From an uncultured beta proteobacterium (GTDB taxonomy: Bacteria; Pseudomonadota; Gammaproteobacteria; Burkholderiales; Casimicrobiaceae), in contig CAVOHM010000006.1 in NCBI GenBank assembly GCA_963695725.1, positions 142,463 through 206,462 of the forward strand: a DNA stretch of 64,000 nt, written 5' to 3'. The notes beneath the pieces are model-generated. The model had not been told where the DNA came from. It made no database searches and was given only the letters and a program-made list of their open reading frames with translations. This document shows positions 39,238 to 54,829 of the stretch, in pieces. A program made the position numbers and the translations under genes. Numbering within the stretch: the stretch's first letter is position 1; the number at the start of each line of letters is the position of its first letter.

Positions 39238-40677
39238 GTGAACGCGCCGAATGTTGCCGCGCAGTCCGTCGAAACGCCCGACATTGCCGTGGCCGCGCTT
39301 GTCGCGCGTTCCCGCGCCGCGCAGCGCGAATTCGAGACATGGACGCAGGAGCGCGTGGACGAGGCCGTCACCGCGGCTGCGTGGGCGATCGTCGAGCCCG
39401 GCCGCAACCGCGCGCTGGCGGAACTCGCCGTGCGCGACACGGGTCTCGGTGACGTCGCCGACAAGGTCGCGAAGAACCGGCGCAAGACGATCGGCCTCCT
39501 GCGCGATTTGAGGGGCGCAAGATCGGTCGGCGTGATCAGCGCGGATCCTGCGCACGGCCTGGTCGAGATCGCGCGGCCGGTCGGGGTTGTCGCCGCGATC
39601 ACGCCATCGACGAACCCCGCCGCGACACCGGCGAACAACATCCTCAATGCGTTGAAGGGCCGCAACGCGATCATCCTGGCGCCGTCGCCGAAGGGGCAAT
39701 CCACGCTCGGCCTGTTGCTGGAATACGTGCACGCGGAACTGGACCGGGTCGGCGCGCCCCGTGACCTGGTGCTGAAGCTTCCCGCGCCGACGTCGCGCGA
39801 AGAGACCTACGCGCTCATGCGGCAGGCGGATCTCGTCGTCGCGACGGGGTCGCAGAACAACGTGCGCGCCGCCTACGAAAGCGGGACGCCGGCCGTGGGT
39901 GTCGGCGCCGGCAACGTCGCGGTGATCGTCGACGAGACGGCCGACGTGGCCGATGCGGCCGCAAAGATTGCCCGCTCGAAGACGTTCGACCACGCGACGT
40001 CCTGCTCGTCCGAGAACAGCGTGATCGCGGACGCGAGCGTGTACGCAGCGCTGCTGGCCGCGCTCACCGGCGAAGGCGGCGTGCTGCTCGACGCCGGCGA
40101 AGCGCAGCGGCTGGAGACGGCGATGTTCGGCGGCGGCAAGCTCGCGAGCGCTTTCGTCGCGCAGTCCGCGAGCGCGATCGCCGCGCTGGCCGGGCTCGAG
40201 CGACCGGCCGTTCGCGCCGCGAAGTTCCTGCTCGTCGCCGAAACCGGCGTAGGCGCGGAGCACCCGTTTTCCGGCGAGAAGCTGTCACCCGTGCTGGCGC
40301 TCTATCGCGCTGACGATTTTGCCGCCGCCGTTACGCTCGCCGAGGAGCTGTTGCGCTACCAGGGCGCGGGGCACTCGGTCGGGCTTCACACGCGCATGCC
40401 CGAGCGCGCGCTGCATCTGGGATTGACGCTGCCGGTCTGCCGTGTGATCGTCAACCAGGCGCACTGCTTCGCGACGGGCGGCAGCTTCGACAACGCGCTG
40501 CCATTTTCGCTGTCGATGGGCTGCGGCACCTGGGGCGGCAACAGCATTTCGGACAATCTCAACTACCGGCACTTCCTCAATATCACGCGGGTCGTGCATC
40601 CGCTGCCTCCGGAGCGCGTCCACGAGCCGGCCGACGCGGAATTCTTCGCGAGCTATCGCAAGAAGCACGGGCTGTAA
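39238..40677 (+). CDS. CoA-acylating aldehyde dehydrogenase (EutE/PduP/SauS-like)
   Basis: GTG-start ORF 39238..40677, 479 aa. It carries ITPSTNPAATP and the catalytic Cys context HATSCSSENS, and lacks the features of hydrolytic ALDHs. Confidence 0.85.
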   Translation: MNAPNVAAQSVETPDIAVAALVARSRAAQREFETWTQERVDEAVTAAAWAIVEPGRNRALAELAVRDTGLGDVADKVAKNRRKTIGLLRDLRGARSVGVISADPAHGLVEIARPVGVVAAITPSTNPAATPANNILNALKGRNAIILAPSPKGQSTLGLLLEYVHAELDRVGAPRDLVLKLPAPTSREETYALMRQADLVVATGSQNNVRAAYESGTPAVGVGAGNVAVIVDETADVADAAAKIARSKTFDHATSCSSENSVIADASVYAALLAALTGEGGVLLDAGEAQRLETAMFGGGKLASAFVAQSASAIAALAGLERPAVRAAKFLLVAETGVGAEHPFSGEKLSPVLALYRADDFAAAVTLAEELLRYQGAGHSVGLHTRMPERALHLGLTLPVCRVIVNQAHCFATGGSFDNALPFSLSMGCGTWGGNSISDNLNYRHFLNITRVVHPLPPERVHEPADAEFFASYRKKHGL

Positions 40678-40688
40678 CGGGGTTACCG

Positions 40689-42198
40689 ATGCAGACCCTG
40701 CGTGACGTGATCGATCGGCACGCCGATGCGCAACCGCGCGCGCCGTTTCTGTTCGCGCCAGAGACCGGCACCGAGTTGACCTACGCGAATCTTCGGGCGG
40801 ACGCCCGATCGCTTTGCGCCGAACTTTCCGCGCAGGGGATCGCGCCTGGCGAAGTGGTGTCGTACATGCTGCCCAACGGCGTTGCCGCCGCCAGCGTCTT
40901 CCTTGGCGGGATGTACGGCGGCTACATCGTCTCGCCGGTGAGCCTTCTCGCGCAGGATGCGCTGATCGAACACACGCTCGCGCACTCCGAAACGCGGATC
41001 GTCTACGCTGCACCCGAGTTCGTCGCGCGCCTGCGCGCGATCATCGCGCGGATCGGCAGCCGCGCCGTGGTACGGCCGGCGTCGCCGGACAGCCTCGACC
41101 TGGTTCCCGCATCCGGTGCCAGGTCGGGGCCGGTCCCCGTGCCCACGACACCGGCGATGCTGATGTACACATCGGGCACCACCGGCACGCCCAAGGGCGC
41201 GCTGTTATCCCATGGCAACCTGATTCACGCCGGCCGGTCCGTTGCAACTGCGCACCAGTTCACACCCTCCGATCGCGTCCTGTCGTCGCTGCCGCTCTAC
41301 CACGTGAATGGCCAGAGCATCGGAACCGTCTCGCCCCTCGTTTCGGGCGGGAGCATCGTGATCCCGCATCGCTTCAGCGCGTCGCGCTGGTGGCCGCTCG
41401 TGGAGCGCTATCGGCCGACGTGGCTCAACGTCGTCCCGACCATCATCGCCTACCTGATCAACGGACCGGACCTGACACCCGCGCAGGCCGCGGCATGCGC
41501 CGGCATCCGGTTCGCCCGCTCGGCGTCGGCGCCGTTGCCACCGGAGCATCATCGCGCGTTCGAAGCGCGCTTCGGCATCTCGGTGCTGGAGGCGATGGGG
41601 TTGACCGAGTGCGCATCGGTTGCGTTCGCGAATCCGCTCGACCCCGGCGAGCGCAGGATCGGCTCCCCGGGCCGGCCGCTGGGCATGGAGGCGCGCGTCC
41701 GGGCGCCCGACGGCAGCGACGCTGGCGGATGGAGCGCGCGGCGAGATCGAGCTTCGCGGCGACAATGTGATGCTCCGTTACCACAAGGATCCGGACGCGA
41801 CGGCTCGAACGCTGCACGCCGGCGGCTGGCTTGCCACCGGGGATCTCGGTTATCGCGACGCCGACGGTTTCTATTTCATCACGGGCCGGCTGAAGGAACT
41901 CATCATCAAAGGTGGCGAGAACATTGCGCCGCGCGAGATCGACGAGGCGTTGCTGGCGCACCCTGCCGTGCTCGAGGCGGCGGCAGTCGGGATTCCGGAT
42001 CCGGAATACGGACAGGAGATCCTCGCGTGCGTCGTGCTGAAAACGGGCGCCGCGTGTACGGAGGCCGAACTCCGCGCGCATTGCCTCGCAGTGCTCGGCC
42101 GCTACAAGACTCCGAAGGCGTTTCGTTTTATCGCGGAGCTGCCGAAAGGGCCATCGGGCAAGGTGCAACGACTGAAGCTCGTGACGGCCGGCGGTTGA
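40689..42198 (+). pseudogene. AMP-forming acyl-CoA synthetase/ligase (SauT-like), net +1 frameshift at ~41718
   Basis: Frame 1 (ORF 40689..) carries the AMP motif MYTSGTTGTPKGA and runs to ...EARVRAPDGS. Homology continues in ORF 41620..42198: TLADGARGEIELRGDNVMLRYHKDPDAT...GWLATGDLGYRDADGFYFITGRLKELIIKGGENIAPREID...KTPKAFRFIAELPKGPSGKVQR. Confidence 0.85.
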
Positions 42199-42301
42199 TA
42201 TGGGCCCGCAGTACCGGTACATTGGTGCGCGCTGCGGCTATCGTCGACGATCACCGTGGCCGGCGGACCGGGTAAAGGTTGTGCACCCAACGAGAGAGGA
42301 G

Positions 42302-43285
42302 ATGGCGATGATCACACTCAACGCACGTCGTGCCGTAGTGGGCGCATTGGCGGGAGTCTGTTTGGGCCTGGCCATGGGAACAGCGGGCCTGGCCGCGGCG
42401 CAGGAAGCGTACCCGACGCGTCCGATCGAATTCATCGTCCCGTGGGGACCGGGCGGAGGCGCCGACCAGGTGGCGCGCAAGGCTGGCGCGATCCTGGAGC
42501 CGATGCTCAAGGTGTCGTTCCCGGTCATCAACGTGGCCGGCGCTTCCGGGCAGACGGGGCTCGCCAAGATGCTGACGGCGGCGAACGACGGCTACACCAT
42601 TTCGATCATGACCGGCGATACGTTCGGCACGCAGGCGGCCGGAAAGCCCAGCTGGAAATTCTCGGACATCACGCCGGTAGCGATCATGATCAAGCAGCCG
42701 TCGGCGTTCTTCGTTCCGGTCGCGAGCCCGATCAAGACGTGGAATGACCTGGTGGCCGAAGCGCGCAAGCGTCCGCTGAAAGTCGCGGTCACGGGATTTG
42801 GCACGCCGGACGACATCACCGTGAACTACTTCACGAAGAAGGGAATCAATCTGCAGTCGGTGCCCTTCGCCAAGCCGGGCGAGCGCTATACGGCGATCCT
42901 CGGCGGCCACGCCGACCTGTTGTACGAGCAGCTGGGCGACGTGAAGAGTTTCCTCGAAAGCAAGCAGATGCGCCCGATCGTCATCTTCGACAACGAGCGC
43001 TTCCCGCTCTATCCTGATGTCCAGACGTGCGTCGAGATCGGGCACCCGGTGATCATCAACCAGTTCCGCATGGTGATCGTCAAGGCGGGCACCGATCCGC
43101 AGAAGGTCAAGGTGCTGGCGGACGCGTTGGCCAAGGTGGCGGCGAGCGACGACTACAAGACCTACCTGGTGGACCAGTACGCGGACCCGAAAAGCTATCT
43201 GCCCGGAGCGGACGCGCAGGGCTTTCTCAATAACGAACTCAACAACATGAAGAAATTTGCCAAGGAAGCGGGCATGGCGCAGTAG
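42302..43285 (+). CDS. tctC: Tripartite tricarboxylate transporter (TTT) substrate-binding protein, Bug/TctC family
   Basis: Internal ATG of ORF 42200..43285 with GAGAGAGGA upstream. It has a signal peptide and the Bug hallmark YPTRPIEFIVPWGPGGGAD. Confidence 0.9.
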   Translation: MAMITLNARRAVVGALAGVCLGLAMGTAGLAAAQEAYPTRPIEFIVPWGPGGGADQVARKAGAILEPMLKVSFPVINVAGASGQTGLAKMLTAANDGYTISIMTGDTFGTQAAGKPSWKFSDITPVAIMIKQPSAFFVPVASPIKTWNDLVAEARKRPLKVAVTGFGTPDDITVNYFTKKGINLQSVPFAKPGERYTAILGGHADLLYEQLGDVKSFLESKQMRPIVIFDNERFPLYPDVQTCVEIGHPVIINQFRMVIVKAGTDPQKVKVLADALAKVAASDDYKTYLVDQYADPKSYLPGADAQGFLNNELNNMKKFAKEAGMAQ

Positions 43286-43369
43286 GCACGTCGTACCGGC
43301 GCCGCGGCTGCAGGGGCGGGCCGCGGCCGCTTGCGTTGCCCCGCTCCTTTGAAATACTTGACACTGGTC

Positions 43370-43939
43370 ATGGCCATGCGCCGCAAAGCCGCTCGCATCG
43401 CGCCGTACGGCATCGTGCTCGCGATCGCCGGGTATCTCTACTACAGCGCCAGCCAGATCGAATACTTCGCGCCGGGCGGACGCATCGGGCCCGATTTCTG
43501 GCCCAAGATGGTGCTGATCCTGATGATCGCCACCTGCGTCTACGAGATCGTCAAGATCGGCTTGTTCTCGCGGGACGAAACGGTGAGCGGGGTGCTGCAG
43601 ACCCTTTCCGCATCGCCGCCGGCGCATGAGAGCGATCCGGCAGACGCGACGGGCGGCCGAACCTACCCGCTGCTGCTGATCCTCGGCATCGCGGCCACCG
43701 TGCTCTATGCGGCGGTGGTGCCGGTCGCCGGATTCTTTCTCACCACCCTCGTGTACCTGGTGGCGTTCATGTACGTCGGGCGCTACCGCAGGATGGGCAT
43801 CGCGTTTGGCGTGAGCCTCGTCGGCACGCTGCTCATGCTCTACTTCTTCATGAAGGTGGCCTACATCTCGCTGCCCATCGGCACTGCGCCGTTCTCGGCG
43901 GTGAGCCTCTACCTGATGCAGATCATGGGTGTCAGGTAG
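43370..43939 (+). CDS. tctB: TTT small membrane subunit (TctB family)
   Basis: ORF 43331..43939, with internal Met starts at 43370/43376. It has four TM segments and sits between tctC and tctA. Confidence 0.75.
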   Translation: MAMRRKAARIAPYGIVLAIAGYLYYSASQIEYFAPGGRIGPDFWPKMVLILMIATCVYEIVKIGLFSRDETVSGVLQTLSASPPAHESDPADATGGRTYPLLLILGIAATVLYAAVVPVAGFFLTTLVYLVAFMYVGRYRRMGIAFGVSLVGTLLMLYFFMKVAYISLPIGTAPFSAVSLYLMQIMGVR

Positions 43940-43947
43940 GCGCTGCA

Positions 43948-45453
43948 ATGGATGTGCTGCAGCATCTCGCGACGGGATTCCTGCATGTGCTGGCGCCGGC
44001 CAATCTGCTGTCGCTGGTCATCGGCCTCGTGCTGGGCCTGCTGGTCGCGGTGCTGCCCGGGCTGACGCTGGTGATGGGGGTGGTGCTGGCGCTGCCGTTT
44101 ACGTACCACATGCAGATCACGCCCGCGATCATCCTGCTGACCGCGATGTACGTGTCGGGCACCTATGCCGGGGCCTGGACATCGATCCTGTTCCGCGTGC
44201 CCGGCGAGCCGATGGACGTGCCGCTGCTCTGGGACGGCTACACGATGGCGCGCAAGGGCGGCGCGGCCGCGGCGCTGGGCTGGACCCTTGTGTCGGCGCT
44301 GTTCGGCGGCCTCGTTTCGGCCACCGTGATGGTGACGCTGGCGCAGCCCATTGCCGATGTTGCGCTGACCTTTTCGACGCCCGAGTATTTTGCCGTCATC
44401 TTCTTCGGACTGGTGAGCGTCGGGTCGCTGGGAGGAGGCTCGATGACCAACGCCTTCATCAGCCTCTTCTTCGGACTCCTCATCTCGACCGTCGGCGTCG
44501 ACGACATCTACGGCGCCGAGCGTTTCGTGTTCGGCGTGCCGCTGTTCAAGGACGGGATCGACTACCTTGTGGTGATGGTGGGCGCGTACGGCCTGGGCGA
44601 GGTGTTCTCGCGGATGGAAAAGGGCTTCGTCTCGGTGCCGGTGGAGAGCGCCGGCGACGTCCGGACACGCTTGCCCACGTTCAAGGAAATCATGGCTACC
44701 AAGATGACGTTCCTTCGCGGTTCGTTCATCGGCATCGTCGTCGGGCTCGTGCCCGGCGCGGGCGCCACCATCGCGTCATTCGTGTCCTACGGCAGCGAAC
44801 TGCAATACGGGAAGAAGAAGGACCAATTGGGCACGGGCATCCCGGAGGGCATCATCGCACCGCAGACCGCTGCCACCTCGTCGGTGGGCGGGGCGCTGAT
44901 CCCGCTGGTGACCATGGGCATACCGGGAAGCGGCGCCACTGCGATCATCCTGGGGGCGTTTCTCCTGCACGGACTGCAGCCCGGACCGCAGGTCTTCAAG
45001 ACGTCGCCCGAGATCGTCTATGCGATGTTCGCCTCGCTGTTCGTGGGCATCATCGGCATGTGCGTCATCGGCTACTTCGCGGCGAAGATGATGGTCAAGG
45101 TCCTGGAGTTGCCGGAGTCGATCGTCTCCGCCTACGTGGTGATGTGCTGCTTTCTCGGCGCCTACGCGTCCCGCAACAACGTCACCGACCTCTGGCTGCT
45201 GACGGGCTTCGGCATCGTGGGTTATCTCTTCGAGCGCTTCCGGTTCCCCATTACGCCGCTGGTGCTGGGCGTGATCCTGGGACCGCTCGCGGAAACCAGC
45301 TTCATGACGACCATGGTCAGCTTCAACAACGACTGGACCGTGTTCTTCACGCGCCCCATCAGCGGAATTCTCATGATGATGGCGTGCATCGCGCTGGTCT
45401 ACCCGCTGGTGCGGCACCGGCTGCAGCAGCGCAAGGTGCGGCGCGCGAGGTGA
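43948..45453 (+). CDS. tctA: TTT large membrane subunit (TctA family)
   Basis: ORF 43948..45453, 501 aa, polytopic. It carries TctA motifs (GLLVAVLPGLT, GIVVGLVPGAGATIASF). Confidence 0.9.
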   Translation: MDVLQHLATGFLHVLAPANLLSLVIGLVLGLLVAVLPGLTLVMGVVLALPFTYHMQITPAIILLTAMYVSGTYAGAWTSILFRVPGEPMDVPLLWDGYTMARKGGAAAALGWTLVSALFGGLVSATVMVTLAQPIADVALTFSTPEYFAVIFFGLVSVGSLGGGSMTNAFISLFFGLLISTVGVDDIYGAERFVFGVPLFKDGIDYLVVMVGAYGLGEVFSRMEKGFVSVPVESAGDVRTRLPTFKEIMATKMTFLRGSFIGIVVGLVPGAGATIASFVSYGSELQYGKKKDQLGTGIPEGIIAPQTAATSSVGGALIPLVTMGIPGSGATAIILGAFLLHGLQPGPQVFKTSPEIVYAMFASLFVGIIGMCVIGYFAAKMMVKVLELPESIVSAYVVMCCFLGAYASRNNVTDLWLLTGFGIVGYLFERFRFPITPLVLGVILGPLAETSFMTTMVSFNNDWTVFFTRPISGILMMMACIALVYPLVRHRLQQRKVRRAR

Positions 45454-45456
45454 ATC

Positions 45457-46530
45457 GTGGCCATGATCGATCGACTGAATCTGTACCGTCTGGAAGTGCC
45501 GCTCACAACGCCGTACAAGCTTGCGTTCGGCCCCGTGACGAAGTTCGACACCATCGTGGTCGAGGCGCTGGGCGCCGAGGGTGGGATCGGGCTGGGCGAA
45601 GCCACGCTGCTCACGGGGTATACCGACGAGACGATCGACGGGAGCTGGAACCTGATGCAACAGCTGGCTGCGGGTATTCCCGGCCAGGCCGCGGAGCGCT
45701 GCATCGAACGGGTCGCGAGCGTGACGCGAACCGCGCCGTTCGCCGCCACCGCGCTGGCGACGGCCATGGAGATGCTGCTCGCCAATCCGTGGTTGCGTGT
45801 GCGGCAGCCGGCGCGTGTGCCGCTGCTCGGATTGGTGAACGGCACCGGTGCCGCGGACCTCGAGGTCGAGATCGCGCGACTGCTGAGCGATGGCTTTCGC
45901 ACGCTCAAGGTGAAGGTAGGCTTCGACGTGGAGCGGGACGCGCGTCGGGTCAGCCTGATCCAGCAAGCGGTCGCCGGCCGATGCCGTTTGCGCATCGATG
46001 CCAACCAGGGTTACGACAGGGAACAGGGTTGCGCCTTCGCTGCCGCGCTCGACCCGACCGGGATCGAGTTGTTCGAGCAGCCCTGCGCTGCCGGCGACTG
46101 GGACGCGGCGCAGGCCGTGGCCGCCGTGTCGCCCGTCCCGATGATGCTGGACGAATCGATCTACGGCGTCGCCGACATCGAACGCGCGGCCGAGCTTGGC
46201 GCGGCACGCTTCATCAAGCTCAAGCTGATGAAAATGGGCAGCCTCGATCGTCTCGCGCGGTCCATTCGGCGCATCCGCGAACTCGGCATGGAGCCCGTGC
46301 TCGGCAACGGCGTCGCGGGAGAAGTCGGCTGCTGGATGGAAGCCTGCGTCGCCCGCGAGTTGATCACCAACGCGGGCGAGATGAACGGATTCCTGAAGCC
46401 GGTCGCGCCTCTGCTGCAAGATCCGGTGCGCTTCGAGGACGGCGCGCTGGTGCTGGCAGCGGGCTATGCGCCGCGCCTGGATCCACAAGCCGTGTCGCGA
46501 TACGCCGTGGCTCGTGCCACCTATCACTGA
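45457..46530 (+). CDS. Enolase-superfamily enzyme of the muconate-lactonizing-enzyme (MLE: racemase/epimerase/cycloisomerase) subgroup
   Basis: ORF 45457..46530 (GTG; ATG at 45463 is equally possible). It carries KxK (LKVKVG), the metal ligands RIDANQGY / ELFEQP / MLDES and a second base Lys (KLKLMKMG). It does not resemble methylaspartate ammonia-lyase as I remember it. Confidence 0.8.
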   Translation: MAMIDRLNLYRLEVPLTTPYKLAFGPVTKFDTIVVEALGAEGGIGLGEATLLTGYTDETIDGSWNLMQQLAAGIPGQAAERCIERVASVTRTAPFAATALATAMEMLLANPWLRVRQPARVPLLGLVNGTGAADLEVEIARLLSDGFRTLKVKVGFDVERDARRVSLIQQAVAGRCRLRIDANQGYDREQGCAFAAALDPTGIELFEQPCAAGDWDAAQAVAAVSPVPMMLDESIYGVADIERAAELGAARFIKLKLMKMGSLDRLARSIRRIRELGMEPVLGNGVAGEVGCWMEACVARELITNAGEMNGFLKPVAPLLQDPVRFEDGALVLAAGYAPRLDPQAVSRYAVARATYH

Positions 46531-46546
46531 TCGTGTTTCGCGCCCC

Positions 46547-46984
46547 ATGTCGAATTGGACCTTGATCACCGGCGTCATCGGCTCCGACACGCACATCGTC
46601 GGCAATCGCATCCTGTCGATGGCGCTGGAAAAGGCCGGCTACAAAGTCGTCGCATTGGGCGCGCTCACGCCGGCGGCGGAGTTCGTCAAGGCGGCCGTGG
46701 AGACCAATGCCGACGCCATCCTGATATCGTCGCTGTATGGCCAGGGGGAGCTCGACTGCCGCGGCTTTCGCGACCTGTGCATCGAGGCGGGGCTCGAGCA
46801 CATCCTGATCTACGTCGGCGGCAATCTGGTCGTGGGCAAGCAGGCCTGGGACGAAGTCGAGCGACGCTTCGTCGCCATGGGCTTCGACCGGGCCTTCCCG
46901 CCCGGCACCCGGACCGACGACGTGATTCGCATCCTCGCGCAGGACTTCGCGGCGCGCGCGCCGGAAATGCCGCCGCAGCGGTGA
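46547..46984 (+). CDS. glmS: Glutamate (methylaspartate) mutase small subunit, B12-binding (sigma/S)
   Basis: Internal ATG of ORF 46466..46984, 145 aa. The sequence TLITGVIGSDTHIVGNRIL contains DxHxxG. SSLYGQGELDC and YVGGNLVVGKQ are close, position by position, to clostridial MutS/GlmS. Confidence 0.9.
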   Translation: MSNWTLITGVIGSDTHIVGNRILSMALEKAGYKVVALGALTPAAEFVKAAVETNADAILISSLYGQGELDCRGFRDLCIEAGLEHILIYVGGNLVVGKQAWDEVERRFVAMGFDRAFPPGTRTDDVIRILAQDFAARAPEMPPQR

Positions 46985-46999
46985 CGGGTCGACCTCACG

Positions 47000-48415
47000 A
47001 TGAAAGCCGCGCTACTGATCGACTTCGGCAGCACCTACACGAAGCTGCGCGCCATCGACGTCGAGCGGGCCGCGATCCTCGGTGCGGGACAAGGGCCCTC
47101 CACGGTCGATTCCGACATCACCATCGGCATGCGGGCGGCGCTTGCCGATCTGGAACGTCGCCTCGGCGTCCTGCCCCGGTTTGCCTGGCGCCTCGCCTGC
47201 TCCAGCGCCGCAGGCGGTCTACGCATGGTTACCGTGGGGCTGGTGCGGGAACTCACGGCGGAGGCGGCGCGTCAGGCGGCGCTGGGCGCTGGCGCCCGGC
47301 TCGTCGGAACCTTCGCGTACCGGCTGACCGCATCGGACGTGGACCGGATCGAAGAGCTCGCGCCGGATATTCTGTTGCTGGCGGGAGGCACGGATGGCGG
47401 CAACAGCGAGGTCATCCGCCACAACGCCGACGCGTTGGGAAAGAGTCGTCTTGCCTGTCCGATCGTGCTTGCCGGAAACCGCTCCGCGATGGATCAATGC
47501 GGCCAGTTGCTCGCCCACAAGACAAGAATCGTCACGGAAAACGTGATGCCGGAGTTCAACGTGCTCAACATCGAGCCGGCCAGAAGCGCGATTCGCAACG
47601 TGTTCATCGATCGCATCGTGCACGCGAAGGGCATCGATCGGGCGCAGGCGATGTTCGACCACGTGCTGATGCCGACGCCGGCCGCGGTGATGGAAGGCGC
47701 GCGCCTGCTCGCGGACGGCTGCGACGGGGCGCCGGGACTGGGCGCGCTGCTGGTGGTGGATCCCGGCGGCGCCACCACCGACGTGCATTCCATCGCGTCC
47801 GGCGAACCGAGCCGGGCGGGCGTGATCCCGCAGGGTCTGCCCGAGCCACGCGTGAAGCGCACGGTGGAAGGCGATCTCGGCATGCGCCACAACATCGCGG
47901 CCATCGGCGATGCGGCAGGGGCCGGCGTCATCGCGTCGGAAAGCGGCATTGCGGCGTCGCGCGTGCACGAGCTGATCGGCGAACTCGGGAGCGACGTCGG
48001 GCGCGTTCCGGACACCGCCGAGGAACGCGCGCTCGATCGCGCGCTGGCCCGCGCCGCCGTCAGGCTCGCCGTGAAGCGTCACGCCGGCACCGTCGAGACG
48101 GTCTACACGGTATCGGGCCCGGCGTTCGTGCAGCGCGGCAAGGACTTGAGCGATGTGCGGGTCGTGATCGGCACCGGCGGCGCGCTGGCACACAGCCCGG
48201 ATCCGGCGGCGATCCTCGAAACCGCGCTCGCCGATCCCGGCGATCCGCTTTCGCTGCGGCCGCGCTCGCCGCGCCTCTTGCTCGACCAGGCGTACATTCT
48301 CTACGCGTGCGGCCTGCTGGGCCAGGTGGAGCCGCGCCAGGCGCTGGCGCTGGGTCTTGCCCACCTCACGCCATTGGACGAGGACAGGGGCCATGAGCGC
48401 ACCGTCGGAAATTGA
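47000..48415 (+). CDS. glmL: Glutamate mutase accessory protein GlmL/MutL (ASKHA-fold putative reactivase)
   Basis: ORF 47000..48415, 471 aa. It starts MKAALLIDFGSTYTKLRAID, carries LLAGGTDGGN and DPGGATTD, and sits between the S and E subunit genes. Confidence 0.85.
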   Translation: MKAALLIDFGSTYTKLRAIDVERAAILGAGQGPSTVDSDITIGMRAALADLERRLGVLPRFAWRLACSSAAGGLRMVTVGLVRELTAEAARQAALGAGARLVGTFAYRLTASDVDRIEELAPDILLLAGGTDGGNSEVIRHNADALGKSRLACPIVLAGNRSAMDQCGQLLAHKTRIVTENVMPEFNVLNIEPARSAIRNVFIDRIVHAKGIDRAQAMFDHVLMPTPAAVMEGARLLADGCDGAPGLGALLVVDPGGATTDVHSIASGEPSRAGVIPQGLPEPRVKRTVEGDLGMRHNIAAIGDAAGAGVIASESGIAASRVHELIGELGSDVGRVPDTAEERALDRALARAAVRLAVKRHAGTVETVYTVSGPAFVQRGKDLSDVRVVIGTGGALAHSPDPAAILETALADPGDPLSLRPRSPRLLLDQAYILYACGLLGQVEPRQALALGLAHLTPLDEDRGHERTVGN

Positions 48416-49895
48416 ACTGAAGCTGCCGTTGTCACAGCAGCGCATCCCGGACGATGTATTCGCCGGGATGCGGCAGGCGAATCTCGCGCGCTGGCCCACC
48501 GGCAGGGATGTCGACCTCGACGAAGCGGTGGCGTTGCATCGGGCGCTGCCGAACCACAAGCAGCTCGCGTGGGTGGTGCGGCGGGCGGTGGCGGAGCGGC
48601 GATGCCTCACGCAGCCGCGGGGTGGATTCGGTACGTTCGCGCTGCAGTTGAAGCTGATGGAGACGCTGGACAAGGAGGGCCTCGCCGACGTCGTGCCCAC
48701 GACTACCGACAGCTATACGCGCAACGAGCACTTCGCGCTCGCCCAGCGCGGCGTCGAGGAATCGGAGCGGGAGGGTCGTTCCATGCTGAACGGCTACCCG
48801 CTGGTGAACTACGGTGTGGCGGTGAATCGACGGCTGATCGAGGCCATCGACAAGCCGGCGATCATGCTGACCGGGACCGCGATGCCGAAGCTCACCGGCG
48901 AAATCGGTTTTGCCTCCGGCTATTCCGGTTACCTGGGATCGGGCATCGCCTACACGGCGTCCTACATCAAGGAAATGACGATCGAGGAGGGCATTCGCAA
49001 CTACCAATACCTGGATCGCCTGGTCGCCTTGTACCAGGAGCATGGCGTCGAATTGCACCGGCGTCAGCCGGGTTTCCTGACAGGGACCAACATTCCGCCG
49101 TGCATCGCGATCATGACCGGCGTGCTGGACGCGCTGCTCGCGGCGGCCCAGGGCGTGAAAAATTACGGCCTCGAACTGGGCCAGACGCTGCATCTTGTCC
49201 AGGATGCGGCGTCGATCGCCGCCTGCGGCGAGCTGGTGCAGGAGTTCCTGGTGAAGTGTGGCTATCCCGACGTGTTCACCTCGGTGACGTCACTGCAATG
49301 GATGGGAGCCTGGCCCCACGACGACGCCCAGTCCGCGGCACTGGTGGTGTATGGCGGAACCCTGGCCGCCATCGGCGGCGCAGTCAGCGTCACGACCAAG
49401 ACCACGCACGAGGCGTTCGGGTTGCCCACGCCAGAGATCAATGCCGAAGGTCTGCGCATGACCCGCATGGCGATTTACCTGGCGCGCCAGATCCGGTTGG
49501 ACGGGCTCGCGGAGTTCCAGTTCGAGAAGGAACTGATCAAGCGCGAAGTGCGGCCGATCGTCGACAAGGTGCTCGAAATGGGCGACGGCGACGTGGCCAT
49601 CGGCACCGTGCGCGCATTCGCCGCCGGCGTGATGGATGTTCCGTGGTCGCCGAACCGGCACGTCAGGAGCCGCGTGATGCCGGCGCGGGACGCGGACGGG
49701 TGCCTTCGTATCCTCGATGCGGGCCTGATGCCGTTCCCCAAGGACGTGCTCGAAGTGCACGAGTCGCGGCTGCGGCAGCGCGCCGTCCGCGATGGCGTGC
49801 CGTGCAACGACGAGCTGGCGGTCGCGAGCGTGTTCGAACTGTCCGAGCCGCTCTCGAAACTGATGTCCGACAAATGGATGCCGCAGGCTGTCTGA
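48393..49895 (+). CDS. glmE: Glutamate (methylaspartate) mutase large subunit (epsilon/E)-like
   Basis: Internal ATG of ORF 48357..49895, overlapping the glmL end by 23 nt; 500 aa. It carries WPTGRDVDLDEAV, TQPRGGF, TTDSYTRNE, SMLNGYPLVNYG, AAAQGVKN and DVPWSPN, and is collinear with clostridial GlmE. Confidence 0.85.
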   Translation: MSAPSEIELKLPLSQQRIPDDVFAGMRQANLARWPTGRDVDLDEAVALHRALPNHKQLAWVVRRAVAERRCLTQPRGGFGTFALQLKLMETLDKEGLADVVPTTTDSYTRNEHFALAQRGVEESEREGRSMLNGYPLVNYGVAVNRRLIEAIDKPAIMLTGTAMPKLTGEIGFASGYSGYLGSGIAYTASYIKEMTIEEGIRNYQYLDRLVALYQEHGVELHRRQPGFLTGTNIPPCIAIMTGVLDALLAAAQGVKNYGLELGQTLHLVQDAASIAACGELVQEFLVKCGYPDVFTSVTSLQWMGAWPHDDAQSAALVVYGGTLAAIGGAVSVTTKTTHEAFGLPTPEINAEGLRMTRMAIYLARQIRLDGLAEFQFEKELIKREVRPIVDKVLEMGDGDVAIGTVRAFAAGVMDVPWSPNRHVRSRVMPARDADGCLRILDAGLMPFPKDVLEVHESRLRQRAVRDGVPCNDELAVASVFELSEPLSKLMSDKWMPQAV

Positions 49896-50058
49896 TGCAG
49901 AGCGCCCGGGGCGTTGGCAAATCCCTGCGCCGGATCTGTCAGGTGCGGCGGCGCTTGGTTGTATCATCGGTTTCTCCGGTGCCGGTTGGCCCCGCGCTTG
50001 GTCCGACACCTTGTCCGTCCGCTTTGAGGCGACGCGCGCACGTGATCACGACATTCGC

Positions 50059-50784
50059 ATGAACATGCTTTCGGTTCGCGTCTGGCGCAGCGGCGCGGTC
50101 GCGGCGGGCGGCAGCTTCGTGCCGTACGAGGTCCCGCGGGCTCCCGCGCAGACCATTCTCGACGTCGTCACGCACATCCAGCGCCGCATCGACGCGACGC
50201 TCGCGTATCGCTACGCGTGCCGCGTCGGCATGTGCGGTTCGTGCGCCATGACGGTCAATGGCCGCGCGCGGTGGACCTGCCGCACGCACGTGCAGGCCGT
50301 TGCGGGTGACGGCGCGCTCGAAATCGCGCCGCTCGCGAACCTGCCGGTCGTTCGTGATCTCGTCACGGACATGGGCGAATTCTTCGACAAGTGGGCGCGG
50401 GCGAAAGGACAGTTCGCCCCGACTGCGACGCGCCACGACGATTTCGCGACGATTGCGCCGGCATCGCACGCGCGTCGTGCGGCCGATGCCGCGATCGAAT
50501 GCATCGGCTGCGGCGTCTGTTACGCGAGTTGCGATGTCGTCGGCTGGAACCGGACCTATCTGGGTCCGGCGGCGCTGAACCGCGCCTGGACGCTCGTCAA
50601 CGACGCGCGCGACGGCGCCCGGGCCGAACGGCTCGCGGCGGTGGCCGGTGACGCGGGCTGCCACGCGTGCCACACCCACCAAAGCTGTACCGAGCGCTGC
50701 CCGAAAGCGCTGGCGCCTACGGCGTCGATCGCAGGGTTGAAGCGCGCGACGGCGATCGCGGCGATGACGGGAGCCCTGTTGTGA
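50059..50784 (+). CDS. Succinate-dehydrogenase/fumarate-reductase-type iron-sulfur subunit
   Basis: Internal ATG of ORF 50011..50784. It has three Cys clusters: CRVGMCGSCAMTVNG..C (2Fe-2S), CIGCGVCYASC (4Fe-4S) and CHACHTHQSCTERCP (3Fe-4S). Confidence 0.9.
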   Translation: MNMLSVRVWRSGAVAAGGSFVPYEVPRAPAQTILDVVTHIQRRIDATLAYRYACRVGMCGSCAMTVNGRARWTCRTHVQAVAGDGALEIAPLANLPVVRDLVTDMGEFFDKWARAKGQFAPTATRHDDFATIAPASHARRAADAAIECIGCGVCYASCDVVGWNRTYLGPAALNRAWTLVNDARDGARAERLAAVAGDAGCHACHTHQSCTERCPKALAPTASIAGLKRATAIAAMTGALL

Positions 50785-51134
50785 TCTCGGCGCGGAGCCA
50801 GTCGTTGCTGTGGCTCGCGCAACGCGTGAGCGCCGCGGTGCTGGCGTTCTGCGTCATCGTGCATCTCGCCACGATGATCCTCGCCGTGCGCGGCGGCCTC
50901 ACGGCGGCCGAGATCCTGGAACGCACGCGCGGCAGCATCGTCTGGGCGACGTTCTACGGCGTGTTCGTTCTGAGTGTGGCAGTACACGGCCCGATCGGCG
51001 TACGGGCAATCGTCGCCGAAATGCGCGGGAATCATGGTCGCGGCATCGATGTGGCGATGCTGGCGTTTGCCGGGGTGTTGCTCGCCCTCGGATTGCGTGC
51101 GGTGTACGCGGTGACGGCGGGGCACGCCCGATGA
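50781..51134 (+). CDS. SDH/FRD-type hydrophobic membrane anchor (SdhD-like)
   Basis: GTG 50781 overlaps the preceding TGA (GTGA), 117 aa. It has three TM segments with conserved His (VIVHLATMIL; VAVHGPIG). Confidence 0.7.
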   Translation: MISARSQSLLWLAQRVSAAVLAFCVIVHLATMILAVRGGLTAAEILERTRGSIVWATFYGVFVLSVAVHGPIGVRAIVAEMRGNHGRGIDVAMLAFAGVLLALGLRAVYAVTAGHAR

Positions 51135-51520
51135 GCGCGAAGAGCGCACCGATGAACGCACATGTGATCCGTCGCAACGACTGGCGCGCGCGCGGCCACG
51201 CCGGCTGGTGGGCGTTCGCCTTGCATCGTGCCTCCGGACTTGCGCTCGTGGTATTCCTGCCGGCGCATTTCCTCGTGCTGGGACAGGCGCTCACGGGCGC
51301 CGACGCGCTCGACGGCACCCTCGCCTGGACGGCGCAGCCGCTCGTCAAGGCGAGCGAAGTCGCGCTCGTGTTCCTGCTCGCCATGCACCTTGGCGGTGGC
51401 CTGCGGCTGCTGCTGGCGGAATTCGGGGGGTGGCGCGCGTCGTGGCAGTCGGCGCTGATCGCCGCTGCGGGTGGCGTCGCGACGCTTTGCACACTGTTGT
51501 TCGCGCTCAATCTCACATAG
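51131..51520 (+). CDS. SDH/FRD-type cytochrome-b membrane anchor (SdhC-like)
   Basis: ATG 51131 overlaps the preceding TGA (ATGA), 129 aa. It carries an SdhC-like HR.SG motif (ALHRASGLALVVFL) and three TM segments. Confidence 0.7.
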   Translation: MSAKSAPMNAHVIRRNDWRARGHAGWWAFALHRASGLALVVFLPAHFLVLGQALTGADALDGTLAWTAQPLVKASEVALVFLLAMHLGGGLRLLLAEFGGWRASWQSALIAAAGGVATLCTLLFALNLT

Positions 51521-51526
51521 ATCGCG

Positions 51527-52402
51527 ATGCACTTCACATCCGAACGGATCGAGAACGTTGCGAAAGAGCTCTACGTTCGCGCGCTGACCGATCTGCCGCC
51601 CGACATCAAGCGCGGCTTCGACGCGCTCGCGGCACGCGAGACCGGCGCCACCGCCCGGGCAGTGCTCGGCACGATGATCGAAAACATCGCGGTCGCCGAA
51701 CGCACCGGCAATCTGCTGTGCCAGGACACGGGCATCCCGATCTACAACGTGACCATCGGCCGCGAGGCGCAAGTCGACGGCGTTGCGCTGAAGGCGGCGA
51801 TTCGCGCGGGTTGCGAGCGTGCGACGCGCGAGACGCCGCTGCGCTCGTCGATCGTGCATCCGCTTACGAGGAAGAACGACCACACATCGTGCGGCATCGC
51901 CGTGCCGGTGATTCAGATCGATTTCTCGGACACGTTCGCGGGCCTCAGGATCGAGATGATCCCGAAGGGCAGCGGTTCGGAGAACAATTCGTGGCTTCGG
52001 ATGGCGATTCCAGCCGAGGGACTCGACGCGATCAAGACGTTCGTCGTCGACTGCGTGCTGAATGCCGGCGGCAGGACCTGTCCACCGACGATCGTCGGCG
52101 TCGGCATTGGCGGCACCGCCGACCTGTGCGTGCACCTGGCCAAAGTCGCGGCGACACGCGCGCTCGGCTCCCGCTGCGCGGATGGCGAGGGCGCCCGGCT
52201 GGAGGCGGCGTTGTCGGCGGCGGTGAACCTGCTCGGCGTCGGCCCGCAGGGGCTCGGCGGCGACGCGACGGCGTTCGCCGTGCACGTGGAGCTTGCGGCG
52301 ACCCACATCACGATGAATCCCGTCGCGGTGAACATGCAGTGCCATTCCGCACGCCGGTCCAGTGCCACGCTGAACGGCGACGAAGTCCAATACGGATACT
52401 GA
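51527..52402 (+). CDS. Class-I (Fe-S) fumarate-hydratase / L-tartrate-dehydratase-family hydro-lyase, alpha subunit
   Basis: ORF 51527..52402, 291 aa. It carries LCQDTGIPIYNV, IPKGSGSEN and the cluster cysteines, i.e. a TtdA/FumA N-terminal-domain type. Confidence 0.85.
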   Translation: MHFTSERIENVAKELYVRALTDLPPDIKRGFDALAARETGATARAVLGTMIENIAVAERTGNLLCQDTGIPIYNVTIGREAQVDGVALKAAIRAGCERATRETPLRSSIVHPLTRKNDHTSCGIAVPVIQIDFSDTFAGLRIEMIPKGSGSENNSWLRMAIPAEGLDAIKTFVVDCVLNAGGRTCPPTIVGVGIGGTADLCVHLAKVAATRALGSRCADGEGARLEAALSAAVNLLGVGPQGLGGDATAFAVHVELAATHITMNPVAVNMQCHSARRSSATLNGDEVQYGY

Positions 52403-52407
52403 GGGCC

Positions 52408-53038
52408 ATGGCGCATCACGAATTCGCGTTGCCCGTCACCGAGGCCGCAGGTGCGCGCGCTGGTGGTCGACGACACGGTCGCGTTGAATGGCGCGCTATT
52501 CGGAATCCGCGACGCCACTCAGATCGCGCTCTTCGATCGTGGCCGCACGACGCGCTTCGATCTCGCCGGTCACGCCGTCATTCATACGGCACCTAACGTG
52601 AAGAAGGTCGCGCCATCGCCGGCGCACCCTGTGGGCTATGCGCCGATCTGCGTCGGAACGACGACCAGCGCGCGGATGGAGCGCTTCACGCGCCCGTTGT
52701 TGAGCCGCTGCGGCGTGCGCATCGTCATCGGCAAGGGCGGCCTCGGTGCCGAATCGGCGGCGGCGTTCCGCGAACTGGGCGGCGTCTATCTCGCGATCGT
52801 CGGCGGTGCGGCCGCGCTGGAGACCACGTGGATCGAGGCGATCGAGGATGTCGACCTCGACGACCTCAATCCCGAGAGCCTGTGGAAATTCCGCGTGCGC
52901 AACTTCGGTCCGCTGCGGGTCGCGATGGACAGTAGCGGCGGCAATCTCTACGCGGTGGTCGACACGGACGCGCGTGCGAAGCGTGCGGCGGTGCTCGCGG
53001 CGCTGGGCGTGGGATCGAGTTCACCCGGCCGCTCTTGA
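52408..53038 (+). pseudogene. Class-I Fe-S hydro-lyase beta subunit (TtdB/FumA C-terminal-domain type), net +1 frameshift after codon ~14 (or a shortened product from GTG 52451)
   Basis: ATG 52408 (MAHHEFALPVTEAA) is one frame off from ORF 52451..53038 (VRALVVDDTVALNGALFGIRDAT...GPICVGTTTSARME...VIGKGGLG...ESLWKFRVRNFGPLRVAMDSSGGNL). The joined sequence aligns with TtdB N-termini. Confidence 0.7.
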
Positions 53039-54765
53039 GGACGCTGCGCACCGACGTCCTGATCCTCGGCGCCGGTGGTGCGGGGCTGTTCGCCGCGCTG
53101 CACGCGCACCGTGCGAATCCCGCGCTTCACATCACGATCGCGGTCAAGGGCCTCCTCGGCAAGTGCGGGTGCACGCGGATGGTGCAGGGGGGCTACAACG
53201 TCGCGCTCGCATCGGGCGACTCGGTCGAGCGCCATTTCATGGACACGATCGAGGGCGGGAAATGGCTGCCCGATCAGGATCTCGCGTGGACACTCGTCAA
53301 CGGCGCCATCGAACGCATCCGCGAACTCGAAAACGAACTCGGGTGCTTTTTCGACCGCAATCCCGACGGCACAATCCACCAGAAGGCGTTTGCCGGGCAG
53401 ACCTTCGACCGCACGGTGCACAAGGGCGATCTCACCGGCATCGAGATCATGAACCGGCTCGCCGAGCAGGTGTGGGCGCGCGGCATCCACCGGCTCGAAG
53501 AGCACCGCGCACTCGATTTCGTCGCGGGCGCCGGGGACGAAAGTGCGAACACGCCTGCCGGCGTGCTGCTGGCCGACGTCCGCACCGGCGGGTACGTATT
53601 CGTGCAGTCCAAGGCCGTGCTGCTCGCCACGGGGGGCGGCCCGACGATGTATCGCTTCCACACGCCGTCGGGTGACAAGAGCTGCGACGGCCTCGCGATG
53701 GCGTTGCGCCTCGGATTGCCGCTGCGCGACATGGAGATGGTGCAGTTCCATCCGACGGGTTTGCTCGCCGGTCGCGAAACGCGGATGACCGGAACGGTGC
53801 TGGAGGAAGGGCTGCGCGGTGCGGGAGGGTATCTGCTCGACGGCGACGGCAAGCGCTTCATGGATCGCTACGACGAGCGCGGCGAGCGCGCGACGCGCGA
53901 CATCGTCTCGCGCGCGATCGATGCCGAGATGCGCGCCGGGCGAACGACGCCGAACGGCGGCGTCTATCTCAGCATGGGCCATCTCGGACCCGATAACGTG
54001 CGGCGACAATTCAAGGGAATGGTCGAGCGCTGCGCCGACTGCGGCTTCGATCTCGCCGCGGGTCGCGTCGAAGTCGTTCCAACCGCGCACTACATGATGG
54101 GCGGCGTCGAGTTCGCGCCGGACTGCACGACCGAGCGACCCGGCCTCTTCGTCGCGGGCGAGGATTCGGGCGGCGTGCACGGTGCCAACCGGCTGGGCGG
54201 CAACGGTGTCGCAAACTCGACGGTGTTCGGCGGCATTGCCGGGGATGCGATCGCGGCGTGGCTCGCGCGCGACGGTGCGTGGCGGGAGCCTGATGCCGCG
54301 GCGCTGGATGCGGCGGTCGCGCGCGCCGAGGCGCCGTTCGCCGGCAGGCGTTCCGACCCTGGCGCGCTCGAATCGATACGCGAGCGCCTGTACGACGTCA
54401 TGTGGGACGACGCCGGTATCGTCCGTGAAGCGGCAGGCCTTGCCCGCGCGGCCCATGGGCTTGCGGACCTTGCGGGCGAGTTGGCGGCAACAGGCATCGA
54501 GGACGGCCAGCGCGCGTTCAACCTGACCTGGCAGGACGCGCTCAACCTGGCGAATCTGATCGACGTATCGCAGTCCATTGTCCGTGCAGCCCAGGCGCGT
54601 GAGAACTCGCGCGGCGCGCACTACCGTTCCGATCGCCCGGATGAAGGCGATCTCGCGACGTCGACGTTCACGCGCATCCGCCAACGCGACGGCCGGATAG
54701 ACGCCGAAGCGGCGCCCGTGCGCTTCACGCGCGTTGCGCCCGGCCGGTCGTTGCTCGATGCGTAG
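53035..54765 (+). CDS. SDH/FRD/L-aspartate-oxidase-superfamily FAD flavoprotein subunit
   Basis: TTG-start ORF 53035..54765 overlapping the preceding TGA, 576 aa. It carries VLILGAGGAGLFAA, MVQFHPTG, RGAGG, PTAHYMMGGV and GANRLGGN. Confidence 0.9.
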   Translation: MRTLRTDVLILGAGGAGLFAALHAHRANPALHITIAVKGLLGKCGCTRMVQGGYNVALASGDSVERHFMDTIEGGKWLPDQDLAWTLVNGAIERIRELENELGCFFDRNPDGTIHQKAFAGQTFDRTVHKGDLTGIEIMNRLAEQVWARGIHRLEEHRALDFVAGAGDESANTPAGVLLADVRTGGYVFVQSKAVLLATGGGPTMYRFHTPSGDKSCDGLAMALRLGLPLRDMEMVQFHPTGLLAGRETRMTGTVLEEGLRGAGGYLLDGDGKRFMDRYDERGERATRDIVSRAIDAEMRAGRTTPNGGVYLSMGHLGPDNVRRQFKGMVERCADCGFDLAAGRVEVVPTAHYMMGGVEFAPDCTTERPGLFVAGEDSGGVHGANRLGGNGVANSTVFGGIAGDAIAAWLARDGAWREPDAAALDAAVARAEAPFAGRRSDPGALESIRERLYDVMWDDAGIVREAAGLARAAHGLADLAGELAATGIEDGQRAFNLTWQDALNLANLIDVSQSIVRAAQARENSRGAHYRSDRPDEGDLATSTFTRIRQRDGRIDAEAAPVRFTRVAPGRSLLDA

Positions 54766-54829
54766 GATGTGTTTGCGCCTGTCGGCGGAAATGCCCTAAG
54801 CTCATTCGCACCGACCGCGCTCTTCGACG

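Follow-up and report, generated by a model that had tools for sequence, protein, structure and literature searches.

A run of 15 genes at positions 39238-54765 of a 64-kb stretch of DNA from an uncultured beta proteobacterium places a B12-dependent mutase of the glutamate mutase type (GlmS, GlmL, GlmE), with an altered substrate pocket, beside genes for sulfoacetate catabolism. The whole 64-kb stretch is called the window here; cluster coordinates are window positions, and labels such as L014 denote the related loci that were compared. Our reading of the run as an organosulfonate-catabolic supercluster of three modules stands at slightly less than even confidence, and the more general statement, that a mutase with a substrate other than glutamate works together with sulfonate catabolism, is close to an even call. 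By its predicted products the cluster is composite, with a sulfoacetate module (genes 1-5), an MLE-subgroup enolase with GlmS, GlmL and GlmE (genes 6-9), and a fumarate reductase (FRD)-like complex with a hydro-lyase (genes 10-15). Open reading frames, Pfam and NCBIfam matches and start codons give the following genes, all on the plus strand, in agreement with the 15 co-directional genes of the original prediction, an earlier reading of this DNA.

39238-40677, plus strand: SauS-type acylating sulfoacetaldehyde dehydrogenase (NCBIfam equivalog NF047625)
40689-42198, plus strand: AMP-forming CoA ligase in the SauT position, split by a frameshift (Pfam AMP-binding and AMP-binding_C)
42302-43285, plus strand: TctC of a tripartite tricarboxylate-type transporter (TTT; Pfam PF03401)
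43370-43939, plus strand: TctB of the TTT (Pfam PF07331)
43948-45453, plus strand: TctA of the TTT (Pfam PF01970)
45457-46530, plus strand: MLE-subgroup enzyme of the enolase superfamily (Pfam MR_MLE_C/N)
46547-46984, plus strand: GlmS-type B12-binding subunit (NF002612, TIGR01501)
47000-48415, plus strand: GlmL accessory protein (NF040745)
48393-49895, plus strand: GlmE-family catalytic subunit (TIGR01503, PF06368)
50059-50784, plus strand: SdhB-like iron-sulfur subunit (Pfam Fer2_3 and Fer4; dhsB TIGR00384, 189 bits)
~50781-51134 and 51131-51520, plus strand: two Sdh_cyt membrane anchor subunits (Pfam Sdh_cyt twice)
51527-52402, plus strand: class-I hydro-lyase alpha subunit (Fumerase; fumarase or tartrate dehydratase type; NF004885)
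52451-53038, plus strand: class-I hydro-lyase beta subunit (Fumerase_C; TIGR00723 below cutoff)
53035-54765, plus strand: flavoprotein of the SDH/FRD/NadB family (all NCBIfam matches below cutoff)

Gaps of 3-15 nt or overlaps join TctA, the MLE enzyme, GlmS, GlmL and GlmE. The interval at 49896-50058 (163 nt, before the iron-sulfur gene) is the largest in the cluster, as originally described; it is not the sole gap above 100 nt, since about 103 nt separate the SauT-position ligase from TctC. Between TctC and TctB lie 45-87 nt, and between the two hydro-lyase genes 48 nt. The gene order is conserved in seven species-level metagenome-assembled genomes (MAGs) and in the metagenome contigs L019-L025 and L031, which removes the concern that the arrangement is accidental or unique to one strain. 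A promoter and terminator scan of 38000-55500 gave counts no higher than in shuffled sequence, and Rfam and tRNA scans of the window gave no matches.

All three mutase subunits pass their family models: GlmS scores 192.9 bits on NF002612 (cutoff 110) and 179.1 bits, also above cutoff, on TIGR01501; GlmL scores 579.4 bits on NF040745 (cutoff 475); and GlmE scores 443.4 bits on TIGR01503 (cutoff 390.1) and 446.5 bits on PF06368. The cobalamin motif DxHxxG noted earlier in GlmS is present in the translation (DTHIVG, within GSDTHIVGN). In glutamate mutase, R66, R149 and E171 grip the glycyl part of the substrate, E171 by way of the amine, while R100 and Y177 bind its acrylate part (PMC10947579). 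The window GlmE aligns without gaps to that of Clostridium cochlearium (1cb7_B) and retains R66, R100, Y177, Y181, K326 and E330, with the substitutions R149L, H150T and E171L. With R149 replaced by Leu, the arginine claw R66/R100/R149 is incomplete, and the stretch after R66 reads RGGFG instead of RAGVA (A67G, A70G). The motifs IMLTGT and GYLGS are fixed in 120/120 of the closest database homologues (74-91% identity). The enzymes of C. cochlearium, E. coli and Ensifer have Glu at position 171, where the window protein and all 120 homologues have Leu; the E. coli and Ensifer GlmE, encoded directly upstream of an annotated methylaspartate ammonia-lyase, also retain R149 and H150.

The mutase thus appears to keep its adenosyl site (K326, E330) and the 'acrylate' half of its pocket (R100, Y177). 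Loss of the ammonium ligand (E171L) and part-loss of the grip on the alpha-carboxylate (R149L) point to an amine-free anionic acid as the substrate, and the enzyme of this clade is probably a B12 enzyme for sulfonated acids with no part in a glutamate pathway. Of the two routes offered originally, a non-glutamate substrate fits the pocket, in which Leu replaces two of the residues that grip the glycyl part of the substrate, R149 and E171, and conversion of glutamate through 3-methylaspartate to mesaconate conflicts with the lost amine ligand.

The clade is well separated, with 64-93% identity among its members and no more than 40% to full-length GlmE cluster representatives outside it; among representatives at 50% identity it comprises the window's own cluster and one 66% relative, the next full-length match being at 40%. 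The canonical R66/R100/R149/E171/Y177 signature occurs in only 35/118 full-length 50%-identity representatives of PF06368 (set P0241-P0390), a count limited by alignment quality at 30% identity. This low count indicates that the GlmE family is functionally broader than its name, and annotations as 'methylaspartate mutase' probably cover several activities beyond the named one. Many other residue combinations are found in the family, as are fused forms of about 640 residues. Compared with the glutamate mutases of Clostridium, E. coli O157-type and Ensifer plasmid clusters, the window enzyme has the S/L/E three-gene architecture and the DxHxxG motif in common, is 38-40% identical and shares the six retained residues named above; an enolase-superfamily gene and a class-I hydro-lyase lie nearby in both. 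It differs in having Leu/Thr/Leu for R149/H150/E171, in an enolase partner of the MLE subgroup, and in neighbours (SauS, CoA ligase, TTT, QOR-like reductase, Xsc and TauD-like proteins) that replace citramalate lyase or CoA-transferase.

A tblastn search of the full window and of 16 related loci, with the E. coli and Ensifer proteins as queries, gave no match to methylaspartase (MAL) at E<=1e-3, and the wider survey listed below gave none either. Queries from the same organisms for citramalate/CoA-ester lyase and family-III CoA-transferase found none in the window and these loci except one CoA-transferase in L013, and the enolase protein has no MAAL Pfam match. The earlier observation that methylaspartase and citramalate lyase are missing therefore holds, and on these null searches of window and loci the three enzymes were rejected as parts of the cluster.

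For the wider survey, 16 loci from protein look-ups and 80 metagenome loci were collected and 94 were scored, reference proteins serving as tblastn queries; the 25 loci that extend 8 kb or more on each side are called long loci. A single-protein search of genome contigs returned only seven very close MAGs, and the broad survey rests on metagenome contigs. The clade has more than 513 metagenome relatives and is common in soil and freshwater Betaproteobacteria; among cultured bacteria, Pelomicrobium sp. G1 carries it. Counts of genes near the mutase module were as follows.

MAL: 0/94 loci
MLE enolase: 19/25 long loci
Quinone oxidoreductase (QOR)-like MDR reductase: 13/25 long loci
SauS: 16/25 long loci
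CoA ligase: 16/25 long loci (8 AMP-forming, 8 SucCD-like)
TctA: 12/25 long loci
TauD-like dioxygenase: 4/25 long loci
Sdh/Fum block: 6-7/25 long loci
Xsc: 2/25 long loci; 7/94 overall
SauS or Xsc or TauD: 18/25 long loci

Several architectures are telling. One reads SauS and ligase (both minus strand), MLE-QOR-TctC-GlmS-GlmL-GlmE-TctB-TctA, then Xsc (minus strand); in L042, L061 and L066 the TTT genes are interleaved with glmSLE, and Xsc and SauS flank them. L014 has a minus-strand IclR gene followed by co-directional Xsc-MLE-QOR-GlmSLE-TctCBA-SDR-SauS, another arrangement dispenses with MLE (GlmSLE-TctCBA-SauS-SucCD-QOR), and L037 has SdhCD-SdhA-MLE-QOR-TctCBA-GlmSLE with convergent FumBA. 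The mutase has thus repeatedly been built into an ordinary sulfoacetate cluster, even amid its transporter genes. The MLE enolase and QOR are the usual, non-obligatory companions of the mutase, and the FRD/fumarase block is confined to the window lineage and at least one rearranged case.

The reductase seen in relatives was initially a candidate alcohol dehydrogenase ('Zn-ADH'); its nearest NCBIfam models are NADPH:quinone reductase and enoyl reductases, and it is therefore treated here as an ene-reductase. At locus L015 (10001-12059) the gene after the MLE enolase encodes a TauD-family dioxygenase and GlmSLE is missing, the flanks being otherwise as in L012 and L016. The idea from this locus that TauD substitutes for the mutase was dropped because TauD is usually found together with GlmSLE in the wider survey; TauD-like genes lie alongside GlmSLE in L013, L041, L049, L083 and L089. 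A saccharopine-dehydrogenase-family protein of 472 residues, with no NCBIfam match, is encoded directly after GlmE on the opposite strand in 10/94 loci, and the gene was seen at L011, L012, L015, L016, L029, L032, L035, L041, L045, L048 and L095. The junction between TctA and the MLE gene also varies: it is a 3-nt gap in the window (45453-45457), is occupied in the close relatives L005, L006 (~5900-6890) and L020 by an opposite-strand gene for a QOR-like reductase, and in L003 (4116-6984) contains a PEP-mutase/isocitrate-lyase-family gene and a methyltransferase instead.

The sulfoacetate module itself is of a known kind. The SauS protein scores 739.8 bits on the equivalog NF047625 (cutoff 600), shares 60-62% identity with the aldehyde dehydrogenase that Caballeronia and Paracoccus encode in canonical sauS-sauT-transporter clusters (56-62% with SauS of canonical clusters in cultured bacteria overall), and is intermixed with canonical-cluster SauS proteins in a neighbour-joining tree. 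The ligase lies directly downstream of SauS, as in Caballeronia and Paracoccus; NCBIfam has no SauT-specific model. Its AMP-binding and AMP-binding_C domains fall in two different frames, and tblastn with the intact ligase of L015 changes frame at 41708/41710. Because the loci of the closest relatives in long-read MAGs hold many frame breaks of like kind, we read this frameshift and that of Xsc (below) as assembly indels; the single-base break in the ligase is probably an assembly error rather than the mark of a pseudogene. TctCBA is assigned by family membership and is predicted to take up sulfoacetate, and TctC orthologues (58-67%) are interleaved with glmSLE in many loci.

In the published sulfoacetate pathway, the TTT importer SauXYZ, for which SauZ binding was shown in Bilophila, is followed by SauT or SauCD, SauS and then Xsc, and SauCD has 20% activity on 3-sulfopropanoate (PMC10413351). 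Annotated plasmids and chromids show the canonical contexts: IclR-SauS-AMP ligase-MFS in Caballeronia; the same order adjoining an IseJ-type GMC oxidoreductase, Xsc and Pta in Paracoccus; and Pta-TctCBA-SauS-SucCD-SoeABC-type genes-Xsc in Azospirillum. As judged from sequence, the SauS model, the position of the putative sulfoacetate-CoA ligase and the TTT match these clusters, so that genes 1-5 agree with the known sulfoacetate module in every part tested. CoA chemistry, originally thought to be missing, is thus represented by genes 1-2, an acylating aldehyde dehydrogenase that passes the SauS model and a CoA ligase.

The original prediction also overlooked the organosulfonate context of the window: 20-38 kb upstream of the cluster are genes for Xsc, TauE and further sulfonate-related proteins.

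15857-16633, plus strand: TauE/SafE exporter (Pfam TauE)
16705-17568, minus strand: divergent IclR regulator (Pfam IclR)
~17679-19434, plus strand: Xsc sulfoacetaldehyde acetyltransferase (tblastn; frameshift near 18761, in an A5 run)

The window Xsc is 75-79% identical by tblastn to the Xsc of L002 and L014, which pass TIGR03457, and its N-terminal half alone scores 587 bits on that model. The sulfonate block at 13059-20265 comprises TRAP DctQ/DctM, IclR, TauE/SafE, the divergent IclR, Xsc and an inositol-monophosphatase-family gene, so the window holds two IclR regulators and TRAP transporter genes. Farther upstream, at 489-4850, are genes for a class-III (Tpa-like) aminotransferase, alanine dehydrogenase and an IseJ-like GMC oxidoreductase, the last 79% identical to the GMC protein adjoining Xsc in L002; by similarity these look like taurine and isethionate entry routes to sulfoacetaldehyde. 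The region shares an acylating SauS and a TTT transporter with the SauSTU/Xsc system of Cupriavidus necator and the SauXYZ-SauCD-SauS system of Bilophila wadsworthia (PMC10413351), with an AMP-forming ligase in the window, SucCD-like ligases in relatives, and Xsc and a sulfite exporter in the same region. Known sulfoacetate clusters lack the B12 mutase, MLE enolase, QOR-like reductase and FRD/fumarase block that this cluster or its relatives have.

The SDH/FRD-like complex of the third module resembles complex II with one departure. Its four subunits and the catalytic His-Arg-His-Arg set are present (FrdA H232, R287, H355 and R390 are kept in the alignment), and the histidine that would carry covalent FAD (8-alpha-N3-histidyl) is absent: FrdA H44 is Cys in 14/14 sequences, the window flavoprotein and 13 homologues. 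Covalent FAD enables complex II to oxidise succinate. The complex is therefore more likely, on this substitution, to be a reductase or to act on a lower-potential couple, which weakens the earlier idea of respiration-linked methylsuccinate oxidation. The architecture of four subunits with catalytic His/Arg/His/Arg is common to quinol:fumarate reductase (QFR), thiol:fumarate reductase (TfrA) and L-aspartate oxidase (NadB); the Cys sets this flavoprotein apart from theirs, and every flavoprotein model is below cutoff, TfrA being the best (483 bits; cutoff 718). Set against the archaeal-type two-subunit class-I fumarase, the hydro-lyase alpha subunit passes the fumarate-hydratase model NF004885 (290.5 bits; cutoff 276) and the beta subunit falls below TIGR00723 (130.6 bits; cutoff 145).

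The enolase has the hallmarks of the MLE subgroup, namely the strand-2 KxK, Asp/Glu/Asp metal ligands and the strand-6 Lys; K151/K153, D181, E207, D232 and K254/K256 hardly vary among 119 sequences, one of which has Gln for K153. Its best solved relatives are dipeptide epimerases and muconate cycloisomerases. It passes no specific NCBIfam model, its resemblance to epimerases is generic (E ~1e-25), and the 20s-loop Arg of the 3rit alignment is Gly. The pairing of the mutase with an MLE-subgroup enolase, pointed out originally, recurs across the survey, and the GlmSLE-TctCBA-SauS-SucCD-QOR loci that lack MLE suggest an accessory such as a racemase rather than an obligatory lyase.

Gene identities, active-site substitutions, conserved neighbourhoods and the absence of MAL are observations; from them we infer which substrate is used, in which directions the reactions run, and each reaction in modules 2 (genes 6-9) and 3 (genes 10-15). 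The retained propionate-arm pocket, the lost ammonium site and the Sau/Xsc neighbours lead to the simplest scheme that draws on the minimal recurrent gene set of TTT, mutase, QOR, ligase, SauS and Xsc. Sulfoacetate would enter through the TTT, be converted by the CoA ligase to sulfoacetyl-CoA and by SauS to sulfoacetaldehyde, and be cleaved by the Xsc encoded 20 kb upstream to acetyl phosphate and sulfite, with TauE as the exporter. In the window lineage the hydro-lyase could convert sulfolactate to sulfoacrylate, and QOR (in relatives) or the FRD-like complex could reduce sulfoacrylate to 3-sulfopropanoate. The general mutase reaction would be Z-CH2-CH2-COO- <-> CH3-CH(Z)-COO-, with sulfonate as the leading candidate for Z: 3-sulfopropanoate would become 2-sulfopropanoate by way of acrylate and a sulfite radical that then recombine, paralleling the acrylate and glycyl radical of glutamate mutase. 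The MLE enzyme might racemise the acidic C2 centre, analogous to methylmalonyl-CoA epimerase, after which CoA activation by the ligase, reduction by SauS and Xsc-type cleavage would remove the sulfonate now alpha to a carbonyl, with TauD-type hydroxylation possibly taking the place of the ligase, SauS and Xsc steps in some relatives. Xsc removes only a sulfonate alpha to an aldehyde, and the ligase and SauS produce such aldehydes from alpha-sulfo acids. The specific scheme, with interconversion of 3- and 2-sulfopropanoate as the mutase reaction, is tentative, and we consider it more doubtful than the general statement above. That an adenosylcobalamin-dependent sulfonate mutase, with a C3/C2 shift in sulfopropanoate, opens a new aerobic route for C3-sulfonate desulfonation through the sulfoacetate/Xsc machinery is the most speculative form of the proposal, and somewhat less probable again.

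The scheme has relatives in general metabolism. Methylmalonyl-CoA mutase with its epimerase follows the same logic, a B12-dependent 1,2-shift between linear and branched acids plus an epimerase for the branched centre, and in the ethylmalonyl-CoA pathway (Ccr, epimerase, Ecm, Mcd, Mch) the MDR-family reductase, the succinate-dehydrogenase-type step and the hydratase correspond. Those enzymes handle CoA thioesters and belong to the methylmalonyl-CoA mutase family and the VOC-type epimerases, whereas here the pocket is a GlmE-type carboxylate pocket and the candidate epimerase is of the enolase superfamily. An anaplerotic role, in which acetyl units from C2 sulfonates would pass through a free-acid form of the ethylmalonyl-CoA or methylaspartate cycle, was rejected: it would need either a true glutamate site or the migration of a bare carboxylate, and it leaves the placement of glm genes inside the transporter operon unexplained. 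The candidate starting compound does occur in the environment: 3-sulfopropionate is excreted as a natural product, and no genes for its degradation have been published (PMC11489063); that paper cites a thesis route for it via sulfoacrylate and sulfolactate.

Several points weigh against the sulfonate mutase. We know of no precedent for migration of a sulfonate group by a B12 enzyme, and 2-sulfopropanoate is, to our knowledge, no natural metabolite. A sulfonate substrate does not obviously require the loss of R149, and the racemase role leaves the tight MLE-QOR pairing unexplained. The FrdA ligands of the flavoprotein and the model matched by the hydro-lyase alpha subunit would suit fumarate or mesaconate no less well than sulfoacrylate. 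Only 7/94 loci have Xsc within 10 kb of the module, and SauS proteins beside the mutase are ordinary orthologues of their lineages in the neighbour-joining tree, with no specialised clade; they may act simply on sulfoacetate, the link to the mutase being co-regulation only.

Some of these points feed a different account, to which we give a smaller but appreciable chance: the mutase would convert 2-hydroxyglutarate (or 2-sulfoglutarate) to 3-methylmalate (or 3-methyl-2-sulfosuccinate), the MLE enzyme would beta-eliminate water or sulfite to form mesaconate, and the fumarase-like hydro-lyase with the FRD-like complex or QOR would process it, leaving the sulfoacetate genes only co-located. Glutamate mutase slowly converts 2-hydroxyglutarate, and R149L, H150T, A67G and A70G would widen the amino-group pocket. 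Canonical glmSLE pairs with MAL and a class-I fumarase, whose places the MLE enolase and hydro-lyase hold here; the kept dicarboxylate ligands of FrdA, the fumarate-hydratase match of the alpha subunit and the rearranged Sdh/Fum block of L037 also fit. However, the lyase would then be indispensable, and GlmSLE stands without MLE in 6/25 long loci; no role is left for SauS, ligase, Xsc or TTT genes amid the glm genes; a hydroxyl would be expected to retain polar ligands and both carboxylate arginines; and we know of no natural 2-sulfoglutarate. An N-substituted glutamate (N-acyl or opine-like N-alkyl, possibly sulfoethyl or sulfoacetyl), epimerised or cleaved by the MLE enzyme, is an unlikely substrate. 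N-acyl-glycyl radicals are stable, the loss of E171, R149 and H150 with R66, R100 and Y177 kept would make room for the substituent, relatives of the enolase include L-Ala-D/L-Glu dipeptide epimerases and the N-acetyl-D-Glu racemase DgcA, and the saccharopine-dehydrogenase-like gene adjoins the module in 10/94 loci. The clusters nevertheless have no conserved amidohydrolase or opine oxidase, the epimerase similarity is only generic, with NCBIfam scores far below cutoffs, the 20s-loop Arg is replaced by Gly, and no sulfonated glutamate derivative of the needed kind is known to us.

Even less probable is the route first favoured for this cluster, a true glutamate mutase whose MLE enolase replaces methylaspartase in an aerobic path from glutamate through mesaconate to methylsuccinate or citramalate. 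The equivalog scores of GlmS, GlmL and GlmE, the adjacent enolase in 19/25 long loci and the class-I hydro-lyase would all be expected of it; against it stand the Leu residues at 149 and 171 throughout the clade, where the MAL-adjacent enzymes of Clostridium, E. coli and Ensifer keep Arg and Glu, a flavoprotein without the covalent-FAD His required for succinate-type oxidation, and consistent neighbours that are sulfonate genes. We also think it improbable that independent sulfoacetate, mutase and FRD/fumarase modules lie side by side in a catabolic island and serve unrelated substrates. The flanks of the mutase module do differ widely among lineages, the Sdh/Fum block is in only 6-7/25 long loci, the SauS proteins are ordinary orthologues, and the window has a transposase fragment and a low-G+C stretch. 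What speaks for integration is that SauS and ligase accompany the mutase in 16/25 long loci, where at least four arrangements occur and the ligase is of one or other of two non-homologous types, that GlmSLE is placed between tctC and tctB, and that in the window the gaps of 3-15 nt or overlaps bind TctA-MLE-GlmS-GlmL-GlmE.

The surroundings delimit the cluster. Upstream, at 35029-39070, an SDR, an aldose 1-epimerase and a sugar-type ABC transporter are encoded on the opposite strand. The SDR (38300-39070) was considered as a cluster member, since in L014 an SDR precedes SauS, and rejected, being 30% identical to the L014 SDR and closest to D-xylose 1-dehydrogenase (341.8 bits; cutoff 400); its place beside the aldose epimerase and sugar ABC transporter marks 35029-39070 as a separate sugar module. 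Directly downstream, at 54830-58165, is a gene for a protein of 1111 residues with a zinc ribbon, an adenylate/guanylate cyclase domain and AAA_16, conserved in the same place in L005, L006 and L008 (72-78% identity). This protein may have a regulatory role; next to the 15 genes there is no transcription factor of a classical kind. A phosphate-related group follows at 58188-63397, with a Ppx/GppA phosphatase by Pfam and a SixA-like phosphatase, PstS, PstC and PstA recognised by eye from translations only. A Mutator-family transposase fragment lies at 5206-5748, and G+C is 0.57-0.61 around 6000-14000 compared with 0.65-0.69 elsewhere, which together suggest recent rearrangement or acquisition in the island.

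Among the papers searched, we found none that connects sulfoacetate or sulfoacetaldehyde with cobalamin or a mutase, or an MLE-type enolase with glutamate mutase, in keeping with the earlier statement that no characterised pathway has this gene combination. The sulfoacetate module had been described before; what is new is the mutase module, a variant of an established kind of enzyme that at present carries the annotation methylaspartate mutase. As all three subunits pass equivalog cutoffs, pipelines give the clade that label, and its pocket and neighbours say otherwise. Identification of the substrate would extend the short list of B12 carbon-skeleton (or heteroatom) mutases by one reaction, and could close a gap in the sulfur cycle stated in the 2024 literature, in which 3-sulfopropionate and related C3 sulfonates have no published genes for their fate. 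If the mutase does act on sulfonates, the C3 compounds reached would include 3-sulfopropanoate from homotaurine and from sulfoquinovose fermentation. Even with a hydroxy or N-substituted acid as the substrate, the finding would correct a widespread mis-annotation and define a specificity code at GlmE positions 149, 150 and 171.

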